Positions 25,307 to 59,665 of a stretch of DNA of 64,000 nt are shown piece by piece. Source of the stretch: Candidatus Eiseniibacteriota bacterium. GTDB taxonomy: Bacteria > Eisenbacteria > RBG-16-71-46 > CAZAMP01. A program made the translations under genes and the position numbers. Position 1 is the stretch's first letter. Each line of letters opens with the position of its first letter. The stretch is taken from positions 3,488,001-3,552,000 of the forward strand of contig OZ245046.1 in the NCBI GenBank assembly GCA_965224245.1, read 5' to 3'. The notes under the pieces are model-generated. The model saw only the letters and a program-made list of their open reading frames with translations. It ran no database searches and was not told where the DNA came from.

Positions 25307-25323
25307 AGCAGTCATCGTGCCAA
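25307..25323 (-). promoter_or_regulatory. Sigma-54 (-24/-12) promoter
   Basis: TTGGCACGATGACTGCT, GG-N10-GC, directly downstream of a sigma-54 activator gene. Confidence 0.8.
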
Positions 25324-25483: not shown

Positions 25484-26899
25484 CTATGCGGGCTCGCCCG
25501 GCCCGGGCATGAGGCCGTGCTTCTCCATCCGCGAGTAGAGCGTGCGGCGGGTCAGCCCCAGGAGCCGCGCGGCCTGGCTCTTGTTGCCGCCCGCGCGCTC
25601 GAGCGCCGCCAGGATCAGGTCGCGCTCGACGGCCTCCAGCGAGAGCCCGTCCTCGGGAATCCGGACGACCGCACCCCTGGGGCCGCCCCCACCGGCGGGC
25701 CCCCTGGAATCGGCACCGGCGGAGTCGGCCAGCGACGGCAGCTCCGCTGGCGTGATCGGCCCCGCACCGGCCAGGATCAACGCGCGCTCGAGGACGTTCT
25801 CGAGCTCGCGGACGTTCCCGGGAAAGGGATGTGCCATCAGCGCCCGCATCGCGTCGGAGGTGACGGCCGTCTCGTCGCGTCCCCGGGACGCGAGGTAGTG
25901 CCGCACCAGAAGGGTCAGGTCGTTGTCCCGCGCCCGCAGGGGCGGCATCTCGATCGGGAACACGTTCAGGCGGTAGAAGAGGTCCTCGCGGAACTCGCCG
26001 GCGCTGATCATCGCCTCGAGCTCCCGATGCGTGGCGGCGATGATGCGAACGTCGGTGGTGAGCGTCTCGGTTCCCCCCACGCGCACGAAGCTCTTCTCCT
26101 CGAGCACCTGGAGGAGCTTCACCTGCGTCGCCGCGGTGAGCTCGCCGATCTCGTCCAGGAAGACCGTCCCCCCGTCGGCGACCTCGAACCGCCCCGGCTT
26201 GTCCCGGATCGCGCCGGTGAACGCACCCTTCTCGTGGCCGAACAGCTCGCTCTCGAGCAGCGTCTCGGGCAGCGCCCCGCAGTTGATCTTCACGAACGAC
26301 CGGGCGCTCCGCTTGCTCGCGGCGTGGATCGCTCGCGCGATCCGCCCCTTGCCGGTGCCGCTCTCTCCCCGGACGAGAACCGTCGCGTCGGAGTCGGCGA
26401 CCTTCCGGGCGAGCGTGAACACGTCGGACATCGCCGCGGACTCGCCGATGATGCCGTCGAACGCGGCGCCGGCGTCCCCGAGTCTCGTGACCAGGCGCTC
26501 GTTCTCGGCGCGCAGCGCGTCGCGATCGGCACGGACCGATCGGAGCTCGGCCACGCGCGTCGCCAGTGCCGACACCTCGTCCAGCTCGAACGGCTTGGTG
26601 AGATAGTCGTAGGCGCCGGCGCGCATGGCATCGACCGCGTTGGACACCGTACCGTGCGCGGTCATGATCACGACCTCGGGCGCGCCCTCGAGCTCCCGGC
26701 ACGCGTGGAGGACGGCCATCCCATCGGGTGGCGGCATCCGCAGGTCGGTGATCACCAGATCGTAGGCGTGCGCCGCCAGGTGTTCGAGCGCGGCGCGTCC
26801 GCTGTCGGCGGTGTCCACGGCGTGACCGTCGTCGGCGAGCGTGTCGGCGACCAGCCTCGCCATCCGGGTCTCGTCGTCACACACGAGTATGCGCATCAC
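25484..26899 (-). CDS. Sigma-54-dependent response regulator (NtrC/ZraR/AtoC family)
   Basis: REC (DD, DLRMP, KPF), GESGTGK, GAFTGA, FREDLFYRLNV, Fis HTH. Confidence 0.95.
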   Translation of the reverse strand: MMRILVCDDETRMARLVADTLADDGHAVDTADSGRAALEHLAAHAYDLVITDLRMPPPDGMAVLHACRELEGAPEVVIMTAHGTVSNAVDAMRAGAYDYLTKPFELDEVSALATRVAELRSVRADRDALRAENERLVTRLGDAGAAFDGIIGESAAMSDVFTLARKVADSDATVLVRGESGTGKGRIARAIHAASKRSARSFVKINCGALPETLLESELFGHEKGAFTGAIRDKPGRFEVADGGTVFLDEIGELTAATQVKLLQVLEEKSFVRVGGTETLTTDVRIIAATHRELEAMISAGEFREDLFYRLNVFPIEMPPLRARDNDLTLLVRHYLASRGRDETAVTSDAMRALMAHPFPGNVRELENVLERALILAGAGPITPAELPSLADSAGADSRGPAGGGGPRGAVVRIPEDGLSLEAVERDLILAALERAGGNKSQAARLLGLTRRTLYSRMEKHGLMPGPGEPA

Positions 26900-38163: not shown

Positions 38164-39529
<1,366 letters not shown>

Positions 39530-54272: not shown

Positions 54273-54706
54273 TCCGAGTCCAGCTCGCGGTCGTGCGCGT
54301 CCTTCTGCCGCATCGCGGCCTCGATCTCCTCCCGCGCATGGAGGCGGCCCCGACCGATGCCGCTGCAGAACGAGCGGACCTCGGCGTTCCAGGCGGCCCG
54401 CTCCATCGTCTCGGGCCAGAAGGGCCACGTGCGACACGGGACCGGCCGAACCGGGTAGATCGTGCACCGGCAGTCGGAGAGGAACTCGCAGGCCCCTCCC
54501 CGCGAGCGCGCGATCAGGTAACCGTCCTCGTCGCGGAGGTGTCGCCGGCGCAGTGCCGTCAGCGACAGGCCGAGGTGACGGGCCAGCGCGCGGGCCTCGC
54601 GCCGCGTGAAGTAGACGCGATCGTACTCACCGTGGTTGTGGCAGCAGTCACCGCCCTCCCGGCAGCCGAACCGCACGCCCTCGGCGTACCACGCCCCGTC
54701 ACCCAT
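54269..54706 (-). CDS. YkgJ-family cysteine-cluster protein
   Basis: CREGGDCC, CEFL, CTIYPVRPVPCRTWPFW. Confidence 0.9.
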   Translation of the reverse strand: MGDGAWYAEGVRFGCREGGDCCHNHGEYDRVYFTRREARALARHLGLSLTALRRRHLRDEDGYLIARSRGGACEFLSDCRCTIYPVRPVPCRTWPFWPETMERAAWNAEVRSFCSGIGRGRLHAREEIEAAMRQKDAHDRELDSE

Positions 54707-55946
54707 CGATGATCGCCGATGCGAACGAGACGACCGAGCCGTCCTCGACCCACTGGTGATAGGCGACCACGTCGGCCTCCCGCTGGCCGGTCCAGGCCAT
54801 CGTCGCGTAGACGGCGCTCAGCCCGCAGATGCGCCGCGGGTTGCCGTCCTCAGAGACCGACCGGAAGAACGCGCCCGAGTCGCCGGCCGCCACCGTCTCG
54901 AGCGTCTCGCGATCGAGGCCCTCGAGCGCCTCGAGCTGCTCCTCGTCGACCGGCTCGGGATCCTCGAACCGCGGACCGACGTGAGCCATGTCGGCTCCGG
55001 CGATGACCGTGACCGTCAGGTGGCGCTCGCGCGCGGTCTCGGCGATGGCGGTGACCATCGCGTCCACCTCGTCTTGGCGTTCCGGTCGCGTCGGGTCGGT
55101 GTCGGACGGCACCAGCGATCCGCACAGAAAGGGGAGGATCGGAGGCACGCGCTCACCGAACACGTGCCGCAGGTAGACGGCCTGGAACTCCAGGGAGTGC
55201 TCGGTCCGGTGCAGACACTCGTCCGCGAAGAGCTCGCCGGGGTATCGACGCACGATGTCCTCGAGCACCTCCTCGGCCACCGGACACGGGCCCAGCGGCG
55301 TGTCGTACCCGATCGAGCTGGCGATGAACAGCTCGTGCGTGAGCGCGTGGGCGGTGCCGAACAGCACGACCACGTCGGGACGCGCGTGTCCGTTCGCGAA
55401 CGCGGCGTAGGCCGCGGCGTACGTCGTCTCGGCCACGCGGAGATCGATGTGCGGCACGATCAGGCCGAGCGGCGGATCTCGGCGAACGGCGAGCGGGATC
55501 GCTCGGAACGACGAGGCCAGCTCGCGCGAGAGCTCCGATGCATCCGCGGAGTAGCTCACCCCGGCGAACGCCGGTGCGCGCCGTCCCTGCTCCCGGTAGC
55601 CGGCGTTCGCCGCGCGGCGGCGTGCCTCGAAGCGAGGCGAGTCGAGGAAGCCGTGCTCGTCGAGGCCTCGCACGAACCCCTCGACCACGTCGCGGCTCGC
55701 GTCGATGGCATGCCGTTCCCGGATGGCGCGGACGACGTCGTCGAGCGTCCGCGTGCCGTCGAAGCACTCGAGCAGCACCGACGACATCGGCGTCATCGCG
55801 ATCGGAGCGTCGACGATCCCGGTCGGATCCTCCAGGACGAGCTGTGCATCGTCGCCCTGCCCGACCAGATGGTGCTGCACCGGCCGTAGCCGGGGCCGGA
55901 GCGGGATGGCGCCGCTCCCGCCCGACGTGTCGGAGATGTCTGTCAT
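54699..55946 (-). CDS. amrB: AmmeMemoRadiSam system protein B (Memo) with PqqD-like N-terminal domain
   Basis: AFAGVSY, PHID, GTAH, EHSLEFQ, DMAHVG, ICG; N-terminal FDGTRTLDDV. Confidence 0.88.
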   Translation of the reverse strand: MTDISDTSGGSGAIPLRPRLRPVQHHLVGQGDDAQLVLEDPTGIVDAPIAMTPMSSVLLECFDGTRTLDDVVRAIRERHAIDASRDVVEGFVRGLDEHGFLDSPRFEARRRAANAGYREQGRRAPAFAGVSYSADASELSRELASSFRAIPLAVRRDPPLGLIVPHIDLRVAETTYAAAYAAFANGHARPDVVVLFGTAHALTHELFIASSIGYDTPLGPCPVAEEVLEDIVRRYPGELFADECLHRTEHSLEFQAVYLRHVFGERVPPILPFLCGSLVPSDTDPTRPERQDEVDAMVTAIAETARERHLTVTVIAGADMAHVGPRFEDPEPVDEEQLEALEGLDRETLETVAAGDSGAFFRSVSEDGNPRRICGLSAVYATMAWTGQREADVVAYHQWVEDGSVVSFASAIIDG

Positions 55947-56566
55947 CCGGATCCGCCTCCCTCCTCACCGGCGTGACGGAGCCAGCGGAAGACCCCGTGC
56001 ACGCGCGTGGCCGGGCGCGCGTCCGGCGTATCGGGTCGTGCGACTCCGGCGCCCGTCGCCTCGGCGCGGGAGTCCGGTGCGGACGGACGGCCGGACCCGG
56101 TCGACTCGACCCGCACCCACCACACCCGGTCCGTGACGCCCGGCGGATCGGTGGAAACTACCACATCGACGAGCATCGGATCGGGTGGCGCGCCGGGGCC
56201 GGGACCGGGCGTGACCGCGATCCAGCGCTCGGGTCCGAGGAGCCGCCGCGCCGCCTCGGCCCGTCGTCCCCGGTCGACGATCTCGATGCCATCGGCTTCG
56301 AGGGCGCACTCCAGGTCGCCGCGCACGAGGATGACGATCCCGAGCGCCTCCAGGACACCGCGCCTCTCCAGCCAGTGCCGGTCTCCGGCGAGGCGCGAGA
56401 GCCTGGCGGCGTCCACGACGAGCCAGCGGGTCGCCGGATCGAGCGCCTCGACCTGGGTCATGAACGCCGCGTCGTCGTCGTGCCCGTCGTCGCTGGCGTA
56501 GATCGGGGGCGAGGGCGGGCGGTGGTCTGGATCCGGGCGTCCACGCACTGGGCGCCGGTCAGGCAT
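55943..56566 (-). CDS. Hypothetical protein
   Basis: ORF fills the gap and overlaps both neighbours; no recognisable family. Confidence 0.55.
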   Translation of the reverse strand: MPDRRPVRGRPDPDHRPPSPPIYASDDGHDDDAAFMTQVEALDPATRWLVVDAARLSRLAGDRHWLERRGVLEALGIVILVRGDLECALEADGIEIVDRGRRAEAARRLLGPERWIAVTPGPGPGAPPDPMLVDVVVSTDPPGVTDRVWWVRVESTGSGRPSAPDSRAEATGAGVARPDTPDARPATRVHGVFRWLRHAGEEGGGSG

Positions 56567-57560
56567 GCAGCTCCACGACGTCGCCATCGCTCAGCACGTG
56601 ATCGCGCTGAACGTGCTGTCCGTCGAATGCGCCGGCGCCCCAGATCCGTGCGAACGAGAGCCCCTCGGCGAGCTCCCGGTGAACCGCCTCGGCCAGATCC
56701 AGCACGGTGCTTCCCCGATCGAGGAGGAACGGACTCTCCATGTCGGCCTTCTTGCCCGGCTGCTTCGTGTAGACGCGGACGACCCGGAGGCTCTCGAAGA
56801 TGGCCTGCCGAAGGGCTTCGAGGCCCTCGCCGGTCTCGACCGACGTGCGCAGGATCTCCCAGGGTCGTGAGAGGGACTCCCGGAAGATCTCCTCCCGGAG
56901 GTCCGCACCGTCGTCATCGGCATGCGTGGCCACGAGTAGAGTGGGGCGCTCGAGCACGGGCCCCGCCCCCGCGCGGTCGACGTCCTGCGGCGCAAGCTCG
57001 CGGGCCGGAACGAGCATCGTGTGCCAGTGCTCCAGCACGCCGAGCGTGTCCTCGGTCGTGGTGAGAATGTCGTCGTCGCCGAGGCTCACGACCCAGAGGA
57101 TCAGATCACAGGCCCGGACCTGGCTCTGCATCCACGCCCGCACGAACTCGGACGACACCGCCGGTGCGTCGACCAGCTGCACCTGGACGTCGTCGATCGG
57201 CATCATGCCGGGATGGAAGCGGGTGGTGGTGTAAGGGTACGGCGCGACCTCGGGCTCGGCGGCCGTGAGTCGGTCCATCAGCGCGGACTTGCCCGCGTTG
57301 GGACCCCCCACCAGCACGACCTGCTTGTGCCCGTCGCGATCGACGTACTCGCCGGGGACCCGGCCGCCGGACTTCCGGGTCTCGGCCCCCTGCAGCTTTG
57401 CGATGCGCTTCTTGAGATCGGCCTGGAGCTTCTCGGTTCCCTTGTGCTTCGGGATCAGCCGGAGCATCTCCTGAAGACACGACAGCTTCTCGTCGGGGGT
57501 CGACGCCTCGCGCATGCGGGCTTCGGCCGCCTTGTACTGCGGGGTGAGGTTCGCCGGCAT
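56559..57560 (-). CDS. DRG-like Obg-family GTPase with TGS domain
   Basis: MPANLTPQY, PKHKGTEKL, GGPNAGKS, YPYTT, DAP, RVYTK, ARIWG. Confidence 0.92.
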   Translation of the reverse strand: MPANLTPQYKAAEARMREASTPDEKLSCLQEMLRLIPKHKGTEKLQADLKKRIAKLQGAETRKSGGRVPGEYVDRDGHKQVVLVGGPNAGKSALMDRLTAAEPEVAPYPYTTTRFHPGMMPIDDVQVQLVDAPAVSSEFVRAWMQSQVRACDLILWVVSLGDDDILTTTEDTLGVLEHWHTMLVPARELAPQDVDRAGAGPVLERPTLLVATHADDDGADLREEIFRESLSRPWEILRTSVETGEGLEALRQAIFESLRVVRVYTKQPGKKADMESPFLLDRGSTVLDLAEAVHRELAEGLSFARIWGAGAFDGQHVQRDHVLSDGDVVELHA

Positions 57561-57717
57561 GGACCTTCTCCGGACTCGTGCCACCGGGTCGCGCTCGACG
57601 TCGAACGCGCTCCCACCCCGATGGTGACGAACCGGGACGCCTCATCGCAAGCGCGGAGGACACGGAGGCCGGGTCGTTTCGTTGGTCGACGTCACCGCGC
57701 GACCGGGCGGACCGAGC

Positions 57718-57882
57718 CGTCGCGTGAGGAACGAGGACGTTCCCACATTCCCTTCGCACCGTTGCCGGCCCAAACGACGCTCAGTTCGTTTGTGTGCGAA
57801 GAGCCCCGCGTAACCGATCGGCCGTGCCTCTCCCCTCATCACGTCCGCTCGGCGGGAGCGCGCCACGCTCCTCACGCGACGA
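57718..57882 (-). ncRNA. Candidate sigma-54-transcribed structured RNA or leader
   Basis: 16-bp closing stem (57866-57881 / 57718-57733) starts at the predicted TSS; nested stems have G-U pairs that work only on the minus strand. Confidence 0.55.
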
Positions 57883-57891
57883 GAGAGCGGA

Positions 57892-57908
57892 TTGCAAGCG
57901 CGGTGCCA
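57892..57908 (-). promoter_or_regulatory. Sigma-54 (-24/-12) promoter
   Basis: TGGCACCGCGCTTGCAA, near-consensus. Confidence 0.8.
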
Positions 57909-57971
57909 TCGGCCACGACGACGTAACCGACGCCCCGACGGTCCGCTGATCGCCGGCCGCGCACCGCGTGG

Positions 57972-58006
57972 CGTCGCCGCGCCGACACATCGTCGGGTTC
58001 TCGACG
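57972..58006. promoter_or_regulatory. Tandem palindromes, candidate enhancer (UAS) sites
   Basis: CGTCG-N6-CGACA at 57972-57987 and CGTCG-N6-CGACG at 57991-58006. Confidence 0.45.
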
Positions 58007-58182
58007 GTCCGGGCCCCCACGGGATCGGCGGCGCGCCGGGTCGCCCCGAACAAAACCATTGATCCAACTCTATGAAATGACATAACATACACAGCCATCG
58101 GGATTGATCCGGCGACCTCGATTACCGTCCAGCACCCCATGAGCGGATCTAGCCCTGCATCGGGTACTTACGAGGGGGTCCC

Positions 58183-58545
58183 ATGGATGATCGCCAGGAT
58201 TCGCTGGCATCGCCCTCGCATCCGGGGGGAAGCACGATCACCGTCGAGTGCAATCACGCGCTCACCGACGGTGGTCTGCGTGTGACCGAGATCCGCATCG
58301 CGCTTCGCGGCGAAGACAAATTGAAGGCGTTCGTCAGCGTCACGCTCGAGCGCAGCCTCGTCATTCGTGGAATCAAGATCATCGAGGGTCGACAGCGGCT
58401 GTTCGTCGCGATGCCGAGTCGCTCCAAGACCGACGGGTCGTTCCAGGACATCGTGCATCCCATCAATCAGGAGACGCGCGCACGGCTCGAGAGCTGCGTG
58501 CTCGAGACGTATTACGACGTCGCCGAGACGCGCGAGATCAACTAG
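58183..58545 (+). CDS. spoVG: SpoVG-family nucleic-acid-binding protein
   Basis: VTEIRI...KLKAFVSVT...IRGIKIIEG...LFVAMPSR...FQDIVHPINQETR. The true start may be GTG 58282. Confidence 0.92.
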   Translation: MDDRQDSLASPSHPGGSTITVECNHALTDGGLRVTEIRIALRGEDKLKAFVSVTLERSLVIRGIKIIEGRQRLFVAMPSRSKTDGSFQDIVHPINQETRARLESCVLETYYDVAETREIN

Positions 58546-59665
58546 ACGCGGGCGGCCTCCAGACCGGCTGATCACCCAGCGCCGCGCACAGCTCCACCAG
58601 CGACAGGAGATCGAGAGCGTTGTGCAGAAACACCGGCGCCAGGATTCGCCGGTCCCCGCCCCGGATCGCCTGCCGGTAGAGCCGGGGAACGTCGCCCCCC
58701 GGCACGTCGCCTGATCGTTCCCGCCCGAACACGTGCCTCTCGATGCTGACCAGACGACAGTTCGGAAGCCGGGTCTTCCACGCTCGGCGTGCCGCGTGCA
58801 GAAGGTCCACGTCGGAAGGCCGGGGCCAGGGACGGATGCGGTGGCGGGCGGCACGATCGCGCAGCAGCGGCAGGTCGTAGCTCCGGCCGTTGTAGGTCAC
58901 CACCCGTTGCGCGCGGGAGAGACGGTCGGCGAGTCCGGCCAGGAGAGCCCCCTCGCGATCGATGTCCGCGGCGAAGATCTGCTCCACCACGACGCGCTCG
59001 CCCGTCACGCTCGCCAGCCCGACCAGGAAGATCATCTGCGACCCGAGCCCCAGGGTCTCGGTGTCGAGGAACAGCGTGGTCTCCGGAACGTCGGCGGGCA
59101 AGCTCGCGAGCAACGAGGGCGGGCACGGGATCTCCAGCTCACGGGCGAGGATCGAGCCCCTGGACGTCTCGCGGCTCCGGAACGGGGATGGCGCGAAGAG
59201 CCGCGGATGATCGGTCCAGTCGGGGCGCGAAGGACGCGCCGAGGTCCCGAGCGCATCACCAGCGGGACGGGCGGCCGGCGGCTCCGGATCCGGCGGCGTC
59301 CCGCCGGTCGTCGGCACCGGAGACACGGGAGTGGTTCGTGACGAGACAGATTCCGCCGGGCGCGCGGGCCCGAACCGCGACGTGAACCGGCGGCGCCACC
59401 ACGGCTCGGCGTCCGGGCCGGCACGGCGAGCGGCGGCGGGTGCCACGGTGTCGGATGCCACGGTGTCGGGTGCCGAGGCGTCGCGCGCCGAGGTCGCTCC
59501 CGCCGCGACGTCTCGCGCCGTGGTGGCGTGCGGCGCGGCGTCCCGTGTCGGCTCGTCTCGCACGGCGTGGAACCTCGACGACGGACCCGCCGGCGCGCGG
59601 ACCTCCGGCCGCGCGCCGCGCGCGATCGCGGACAGGCGGCGCCGGAGGGTCGAGGAGAGTCTCAC
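58538..59665 (-). CDS. YprB/MrfB-like RNase H-fold (DEDD) exonuclease
   Basis: FLDTETLGL, VTYNGRSYDLP, DLLH, HNALDL; low-complexity N-terminus. Confidence 0.85.
   Translation of the reverse strand: MRLSSTLRRRLSAIARGARPEVRAPAGPSSRFHAVRDEPTRDAAPHATTARDVAAGATSARDASAPDTVASDTVAPAAARRAGPDAEPWWRRRFTSRFGPARPAESVSSRTTPVSPVPTTGGTPPDPEPPAARPAGDALGTSARPSRPDWTDHPRLFAPSPFRSRETSRGSILARELEIPCPPSLLASLPADVPETTLFLDTETLGLGSQMIFLVGLASVTGERVVVEQIFAADIDREGALLAGLADRLSRAQRVVTYNGRSYDLPLLRDRAARHRIRPWPRPSDVDLLHAARRAWKTRLPNCRLVSIERHVFGRERSGDVPGGDVPRLYRQAIRGGDRRILAPVFLHNALDLLSLVELCAALGDQPVWRPPASS

Follow-up and report, generated by a model that had tools for sequence, protein, structure and literature searches.

A gene for a DRG/Rbg-like GTPase and a divergent spoVG gene flank a spacer in which a sigma-54 promoter sequence is followed, at the predicted transcription start, by one arm of a long inverted repeat. 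The question raised by this arrangement is whether the promoter would produce a small RNA that acts on its own or the 5' leader of the GTPase mRNA. The earlier note on this DNA described an unannotated sigma-54-driven structured RNA and named both outcomes. Our comparison uses the source genome, G000, from which a stretch of 64,000 nt (the window) was analysed, and G001, the sole other genome in an order that consists of these two genomes only.

Organization of the locus

The divergent genes are separated by 622 nt (57561-58182) in DNA of 69% G+C, and by 588 nt in G001, where spoVG and the GTPase gene are likewise divergent (Table 1). Among the loci of GTPase homologs that were compared, G001 alone keeps this arrangement. 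GTPase-based scans of metagenome_contigs and genome_contigs returned no relative above ~52-57% identity, and spoVG lay beside the GTPase homolog at none of the loci from these scans. A search for the spacer DNA in 40 relatives gave short chance matches only. Contigs from four sequencing runs consisted of the same DNA or of short pieces from unrelated organisms, with no variants of the leader among them.

The GTPase is 62% identical between G000 and G001. Its closest solved chains are those of yeast Rbg2 (E 3e-23) and Rbg1 (E 6.5e-21); because these are DRG orthologues, the label 'DRG GTPase' used in the earlier note holds. The ATG is at 57560, 322 nt past the predicted +1 and thus at the distance of about 320 nt given before. 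In G001 the Shine-Dalgarno sequence at the equivalent place reads GGGAGAGAAG.

The genes downstream of the GTPase on the same strand are, in order, a 214-aa ORF without an assigned family, a Memo-like gene and a QueG-like gene. In G001 the gene overlapping the GTPase stop encodes a protein 47% identical overall to the Memo-like protein, and because the GTPase and Memo-like genes overlap directly there, we regard the 214-aa ORF as a G000-specific insertion. An ORF of the same length further along in G001 is unrelated. The Memo-like protein begins with an additional region of ~120 aa, which is also conserved in G001; its PqqD-like match is weak and falls below the cut-off (E 2.5e-4). On the other side of the spacer, spoVG scores 98.3 bits against NCBIfam NF009749, under the curated cut-off of 108. 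A gene of the RNase_H_2 superfamily (a predicted exonuclease) adjoins spoVG in both genomes (58538-59665, minus strand; L111 3403-4236, plus strand), and its G000 version has a long low-complexity N-terminal extension of ~190 aa.

Table 1. Positions of the features discussed (window coordinates unless a genome is named)
Feature	Position	Strand	Basis or remark
GTPase gene, DRG/Rbg-like with TGS domain, 333 aa, first gene of the operon	56559..57560	-	Pfam MMR_HSR1 and TGS
Codons 4-7 of the GTPase gene (CCUCACCCC), complementary to the loop of hairpin A	57541..57549	-	duplex prediction
Shine-Dalgarno sequence of the GTPase gene, GGAGAAGG	57564..57571	-	read from the sequence
214-aa ORF filling ~610 nt between the GTPase and Memo-like genes	55943-56587	-	no Pfam or NCBIfam match
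Memo-like (AmmeMemoRadiSam B-type) gene, downstream of the GTPase gene	54699..55946	-	Pfam Memo; NCBIfam TIGR04336, 99 bits
Sigma-54 (-24/-12) promoter TGGCACCGCGCTTGCA, TGGCAC-N5-TTGCA; predicted +1 ~57882	57893..57908	-	11/11 consensus positions, zero mismatches
Closing helix P1, 5' strand, starting at the predicted +1	57854..57881	-	MFE fold; pair probabilities 0.88-0.93 in the full leader
Hairpin A, 41 nt, with the 13-nt loop AUGAGGGGAGAGG at 57839-57827	57813..57853	-	gap-free alignment with G001
Variable inner hairpins B and C of the first domain	57754..57809	-	MFE and centroid folds
Closing helix P1, 3' strand	57718..57744	-	MFE fold, inverted repeat
Second leader domain, closed by a ~20-bp helix	57572..57717	-	pair probabilities near 1.0
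Two adjacent GTCG-N6-CGAC palindromes, 19 nt apart, candidate activator-binding site	57972..58006	.	-90 to -124 from the predicted +1
spoVG sigma-70-type promoter TTGATC-18-TAACAT, back to back with the sigma-54 promoter	58059..58088	+	top-conserved block of the intergenic alignment
spoVG gene, divergent from the GTPase gene	58183..58545	+	Pfam SpoVG, 100 bits
csrA and sigma-54 site region	G000 C1:1316921, 1318139-1318294; G001 C1:134336-134491, 142767, 145724

The sigma-54 promoter

The promoter had been described as near-consensus; it is an exact match, and so is the site TGGCACATCACTTGCA at the orthologous place in G001, which also agrees at 11 of 11 positions. The two sites stand 348 nt (G000) and 304 nt (G001) upstream of the GTPase ATG. 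They were located by pattern search, since global alignments of the two spacers misplace them. The position of the predicted +1 assumes that the C of the -12 GC element stands at -12.

Within the window the exact consensus occurs once, at this site. Allowing up to one mismatch gives three matches against 0.54 expected, a count reached by 3 of 100 shuffles. G001 has five perfect sites in 4.4 Mb, and by our own estimate the odds of a perfect site falling by chance on the correct strand of its 588-nt spacer are ~3e-4. Genome-wide, perfect sites are not enriched over a reversed-pattern control (6 vs 10 in G000, 5 vs 7 in G001); they do exceed variants with the wrong spacing (0-2). G000 encodes one copy of rpoN (a single Sigma54_DBD match, 220 bits); of its 42 Sigma54_activat matches above the Pfam cut-off, 35 reach E <= 5e-42. 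Perfect conservation at the orthologous place in G001, together with rpoN and many activator genes, makes the promoter very probably real. Judged by its consensus spacing and by the rpoN and activator genes of the genome, it is an unexceptional promoter of the sigma-54 type.

The conserved promoter suggests that the gene is activated by a specific signal through an activator, as opposed to being expressed constitutively. No activator gene adjoins the locus in G000 or G001, and the strand that carries the GTPase gene yielded no second promoter-like site for it. Four of the five other perfect sites in G000 lie 4-48 nt ahead of an ORF (by a crude ORF call), so that the long leader kept in both genomes stands out. 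The site appears to be confined to this pair of genomes: in a set of 100 further loci with GTPase homologs, drawn from metagenomes and from relatives in the class, no site reaches 10 of 11 positions and five loci have one at 9 of 11; among 80 genome_contigs GTPase loci, one 9/11 match was found in the forward direction vs eight on the control strand.

The earlier note also pointed to two CGTCG-N6-CGACR palindromes upstream. Both are present (57992-58005 and 57973-57986), but the second begins with TGTCG and is imperfect. The pair accounts for two of the five occurrences of GTCG-N6-CGAC in the 64 kb. The palindromes as such are not conserved in the G001 spacer, where only CCGACGAT...TCGG is common to both genomes. 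As an observation on the window as a whole, GTCG-N6-CGAC is under-represented (5 vs 13.8 +/- 3.8 in shuffles, with at least five in 100 of 100). Conservation in the spacer extends further to the sigma-70-type promoter of spoVG, which reads TTGACC-18-TAACAT in G001 and was picked up there by a promoter scan, and to the ribosome-binding site.

Two genes for sigma-54 activators lie elsewhere in the window, at 25949-26452 (minus strand) and 38576-39079 (plus strand). Just downstream of one of them is a sigma-54-like site matching at 10 of 11 positions, TGGCACGATGACTGCT (25307-25322, minus strand); 47 nt beyond it begins an ORF whose start resembles a signal peptide.

Fold of the leader

From the predicted +1 to the ATG the leader measures ~322 nt in G000 and ~278 nt in G001. 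In the minimum free energy (MFE) fold the 5' end pairs in a stem of 17 bp, two of them G-U (57881-57865 with 57734-57718), which closes ~165 nt; as DNA this is a 19-nt inverted repeat, 89% complementary (57718-57736 / 57863-57881). The 16-bp stem proposed in the earlier note is therefore present and slightly longer than stated, but it is no better than chance. It is listed 19th of the 85 inverted repeats in the window, and a 222-nt stretch containing the fold has no excess stability over shuffled sequences (z -0.08; 85 of 200 fold as well). The best 162-nt window of the G000 leader likewise gives z ~0 against the best windows of shuffled leaders, 16 of 30 being as good. Trimming the domain precisely to its stem yields z -4.3, but that choice of borders is circular and the value was set aside in favour of the window test (z ~0). 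In G001, the corresponding domain is stabler than 30 of 30 shuffles (z -3.8). Mismatches become G-U pairs on the minus strand only, as had been noted, and this strand folds slightly better than the other (-100.9 vs -95.7 kcal/mol).

The two genomes share a layout in which a long closing helix, P1, is followed by a hairpin. P1 comprises 25 bp in G000 and 20 bp in G001, with pair probabilities of ~0.9 and 1.0, and delimits domains of 164 and 157 nt. Directly 3' of its 5' strand, with zero spacer in both genomes, comes a hairpin that we call A. The remainder of the domain differs. The region of hairpins B and C in G000, which contains a CUCUUCGCAC/GUGCGAAGGG alternative and a CCG-GCAA-CGG hairpin, is not conserved in G001 and is replaced there by one long hairpin, so that the helices meet in a four-way junction in G000 and a three-way junction in G001. 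The second domain of the leader is described for G000, and no counterpart is shown in G001.

This arrangement changes the interior pairing that the earlier note had drawn. The segments it listed as nested helices are complementary, but in both the MFE fold and the comparison with G001 GGACGU sits in a local hairpin and not opposite ACGUCC; that pairing is displaced by the stem of hairpin A. The purine-rich stretch recorded as unpaired is the loop of hairpin A and the most conserved part of the leader. The rod-with-bubble likeness to 6S RNA is not borne out, as the domain is multi-branched and has no 6S match.

Beyond hairpin A the leaders cannot be aligned, and words common to both occur at chance level only. 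Two such words, GCGUGGCGCG and CCCGGCCUC, were considered as conserved elements and set aside because they are not colinear and have chance frequency. A search of the whole window with Rfam 15 at gathering thresholds gave no match, and at E <= 10 the interval 57400-58300 gave three chance-level rows; those of the G001 spacer are at chance level too, and none is common to G000 and G001, in keeping with the earlier failure to assign the RNA to a known family. Between the promoter and the ATG, neither genome has a terminator-like site on the strand of the gene. The leaders contain no conserved small ORF: the possible frames, of 65 codons in G000 and 26 codons in G001, are unrelated, and the G000 frame has low third-position G+C. 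The 26-codon frame of G001 opens at an ATG 4 nt past the loop motif of hairpin A; G000 has no start codon there, and the frame was rejected as a shared feature.

A conserved hairpin next to the closing helix

Hairpin A is the one segment of the leader that aligns between the genomes without a gap. In G001 it occupies L007 1263-1303 and has a loop of the same length, 13 nt (GUAUUGGGAGAGG). Eight loop bases are identical, and the loop ends in the motif GGGAGAGG. All 11 stem pairs are standard in both genomes (22 of 22 cells pair), five having changed on both sides, two on one side and four being invariant; controls in which the partner was slid by 1-3 columns pair in 23-50% of cells. The earlier note had suggested a covariation analysis of homologous spoVG-GTPase spacers, and for this G001 is the only homologous spacer: hairpin A keeps 11 of 11 pairs, five of them with compensatory changes, and the rest cannot be aligned. 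This covariation is a comparison of two sequences, and 18 of 500 shuffles reach the observed values. The sense strand gives the stabler hairpin in each genome (-15.3 vs -13.6 kcal/mol in G000; -21.1 vs -13.1 kcal/mol in G001), with one pair per genome being G-U on that strand only.

How specific the hairpin is depends on where it is sought. At E <= 10, a model built from the two sequences has no match in either genome apart from the two hairpins themselves. With a model built from G000 only, the G001 hairpin ranks first within the 15-kb G001 locus (17.8 bits, E 0.0099; next match 12.6 bits). In the whole of G001, this model finds three unrelated matches of 17.6-20.1 bits, so the 17.8-bit match is significant only with its place fixed beforehand. 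Across 206 genomes of the phylum, the promoter is combined with GGGAGAGG at a distance of 50-80 nt downstream in two, G000 and G001, in each case at the spoVG-GTPase locus.

A class-wide scan with the hairpin model at E <= 1 matched 22 of 151 genomes, the two known loci included. None of the 11 inspected among the 24 other matches has a sigma-54-like site (at least 8 of 11 positions) within 250 nt upstream, and one inspected match, L205, contains GGGAGAGG. Three class-wide matches were compared with the place of the GTPase gene, two in G009 and one in G034, and lie on other contigs.

At the level of sequence, then, the promoter and the hairpin are present and conserved on the strand of the gene, and an RNA motif defined from two genomes is plausible. 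What stands of the structured RNA claimed before is the 41-nt hairpin and the helix-then-hairpin layout common to both genomes; what does not is the 165-nt fold, which in G000 is thermodynamically unremarkable and whose sequence is unconserved.

Alternative explanations and the favoured reading

The stand-alone RNA raised at the outset would be a sigma-54-dependent sRNA of ~165-215 nt that acts in trans through its purine-rich loop, with a 3' end generated through processing or at a non-canonical terminator that follows P1. In its favour, the domain of both genomes is compact, begins at the +1 and has a long closing helix, each genome has a single copy of the hairpin, and sigma-54-driven sRNAs such as Qrr exist. 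Against these points, terminator-like hairpins with a U run are absent from this strand between promoter and ATG in both genomes, and none of the sRNA families in Rfam gives a match. The GTPase gene would also lose its one candidate promoter, there being no other promoter-like site on its strand. Since no terminator precedes the ATG and the long distance to it is kept in both genomes, a leader of the operon fits better, and we consider the free sRNA unlikely. An RNA on the plus strand has also to be weighed, because hairpin A folds on that strand too (-13.6 and -13.1 kcal/mol). Some staphylococcal sRNAs are known to target ribosome-binding sites with C-rich loops, and an antisense transcript would present the loop CCUCUCCCC for pairing with Shine-Dalgarno sequences. 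However, the sense hairpin is the stabler in both genomes, markedly so in G001, the G-U pairs point to the sense strand, and no promoter-like site in the leader points the other way; we hold the antisense RNA to be highly improbable.

The remaining alternatives accept less of the conservation as functional. The promoter may be real and the leader without a structured function, its stems being what a spacer of 70% G+C ordinarily contains and the hairpin a coincidence. The near-zero z scores and the rank of the stem in G000 are consistent with this, as are the shared words at chance level, the three equally good matches of the G000-only model elsewhere in G001 and the chance-level matches of the class-wide scan in 20 other genomes. 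It would nevertheless leave to coincidence two gap-free hairpins with equal loop length, eight identical loop bases and 11 of 11 pairs kept, each placed directly after a long closing helix, along with a G001 domain that beats 30 of 30 shuffles and a long leader kept in both genomes. This explanation is doubtful in our judgement, though it deserves to be taken seriously. One step further, the consensus match itself could be a chance site or a relic, with the GTPase gene transcribed from an unrecognised promoter nearer the ATG. Perfect sites are indeed no commoner genome-wide than the reversed-pattern control, but chance or decay would then have left 11/11 sites at orthologous places in two otherwise unalignable spacers, in a genome with rpoN and many activator genes and with no sigma-70-like site on the strand, and we think this very unlikely.

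The reading we favour, by a modest degree of belief, is that the spacer is the control region of the GTPase/Memo-like operon and comprises an activator-dependent sigma-54 promoter and a cis-acting structured leader. On this reading the element is probably a structured 5' leader limited to this lineage and containing one candidate conserved motif; a new RNA standing on its own is less likely.

Loop complementarity and a model for the leader

The loop of hairpin A is complementary to codons 4-7 of the GTPase gene. The predicted duplex has an energy of -15.7 kcal/mol and rank 2 in G000, where a different segment is the best predicted partner of the loop, and -11.5 kcal/mol and rank 1 in G001. The exact codon choice CCUCACCCC is found at 2 of 114 homolog loci that encode NLTP, G001 among them. 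Because both partners are conserved, the pairing counts in effect as a single observation. The loop also resembles the ribosome-binding site of its own genome in each case.

From the DNA we infer a transcript, its 3' extent and its possible regulatory action as follows. An activator bound upstream, with the palindromes at 57972-58006 as its candidate site, would drive sigma-54 transcription from 57908-57893 with a start near 57882. The transcript would consist of a ~322-nt non-coding leader continuous with the GTPase/Memo-like operon. Folding from its first bases, the leader would form the ~165-nt domain closed by the long helix, and the 41-nt hairpin would display the Shine-Dalgarno-like GGGAGAGG in its 13-nt loop. 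Helices as long as 20-25 bp typically act as determinants of stability or processing, and here the base-paired 5' end and long helix may fix how long the mRNA lasts or how it is processed. The purine loop, being exposed, may control the start of translation, either by pairing with CCUCACCCC or by binding the 30S subunit or a protein.

A more specific version of this scheme takes the hairpin as a mimic of the Shine-Dalgarno sequence, through which a gene for a ribosome-interacting DRG-type GTPase would sense the translation machinery; the exposed GGGAGAGG loop would pair with the gene's own codons 4-7, or would capture 30S subunits or the GTPase itself. We regard this as a long shot. If it were true, translation of the activator-gated sigma-54 transcript would be confined to a particular state of the ribosome, and the leader would belong to a type of cis-regulatory RNA not described so far and limited to a single order within an uncultured phylum. 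The bacterial relatives of DRG/Rbg GTPases from eukaryotes and archaea have received almost no study, and the conserved hairpin offers a concrete, mutable handle on post-transcriptional control; its practical value is limited, the element being known from two uncultured genomes only.

Comparison with known systems

The promoter agrees with sigma-54 promoters served by enhancer-binding proteins in its exact -24 GG and -12 GC elements, its canonical spacing and the accompanying rpoN and ~35 strong activator genes. Activator sites usually lie ~80-150 bp upstream of such promoters, and the paired palindromes, 90-124 bp upstream, fall within this range but are not kept in G001. The locus differs in its unusually long leader, in that the gene served is a DRG-like GTPase, and in that no cognate activator is encoded nearby.

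GlmY and GlmZ of enterobacteria are sigma-54-dependent small RNAs. The Qrr sRNAs depend on LuxO and sigma-54 (10.1101/2021.07.01.450815). The leader shares with Qrr1-5 of Vibrio and with GlmY/GlmZ a non-coding structured RNA that starts at a sigma-54 promoter. We considered it as a member of these families and rejected the assignment: it has no Rfam match in sequence or structure and no terminator, and the RNA would run on into the gene.

Another system for comparison is the rpoS leader of Escherichia coli, a long 5' leader that folds back on its own translation start. Both leaders are several hundred nucleotides long and contain a segment complementary to the initiation region, here the loop against codons 4-7. 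In our case, however, the pairing is predicted, would be made by a hairpin loop ~290 nt upstream, and has no known trans-acting partner. With 6S RNA the first domain shares a size of ~165-185 nt and ends paired in a long helix, but no 6S family is among the Rfam matches even at E <= 10, the branched junctions take the place of a rod with a central bubble, and the domain lies within a leader. The RNA is thus neither 6S nor a known riboswitch or sRNA, and it is probably not a free sRNA at all.

Leaders bound by CsrA carry A-N-GGA in short hairpin loops and a further site at the Shine-Dalgarno sequence. Like CsrA/RsmA targets, the GTPase leader has one GGA in a hairpin loop and another within the Shine-Dalgarno sequence, and both genomes possess csrA. 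It differs in that the 13-nt loop has no A-N-GGA core (it reads AGGGGA / UGGGA) and in that the two GGA sites are ~260 nt apart. Separately, csrA lies 1-11 kb from other perfect sigma-54 sites in both genomes, in what may, going by the usual placement of csrA, be a flagellar-type cluster.

Other features of the window

Among the well-matched inverted repeats of the window, the two longest lie at 128-344 and 959-1154, far from the locus. Their arms are ~150 nt apart and they have a word in common, GCCCCACGCTTG / CAAGCGTGGGGC; they may be copies of a repeated element.
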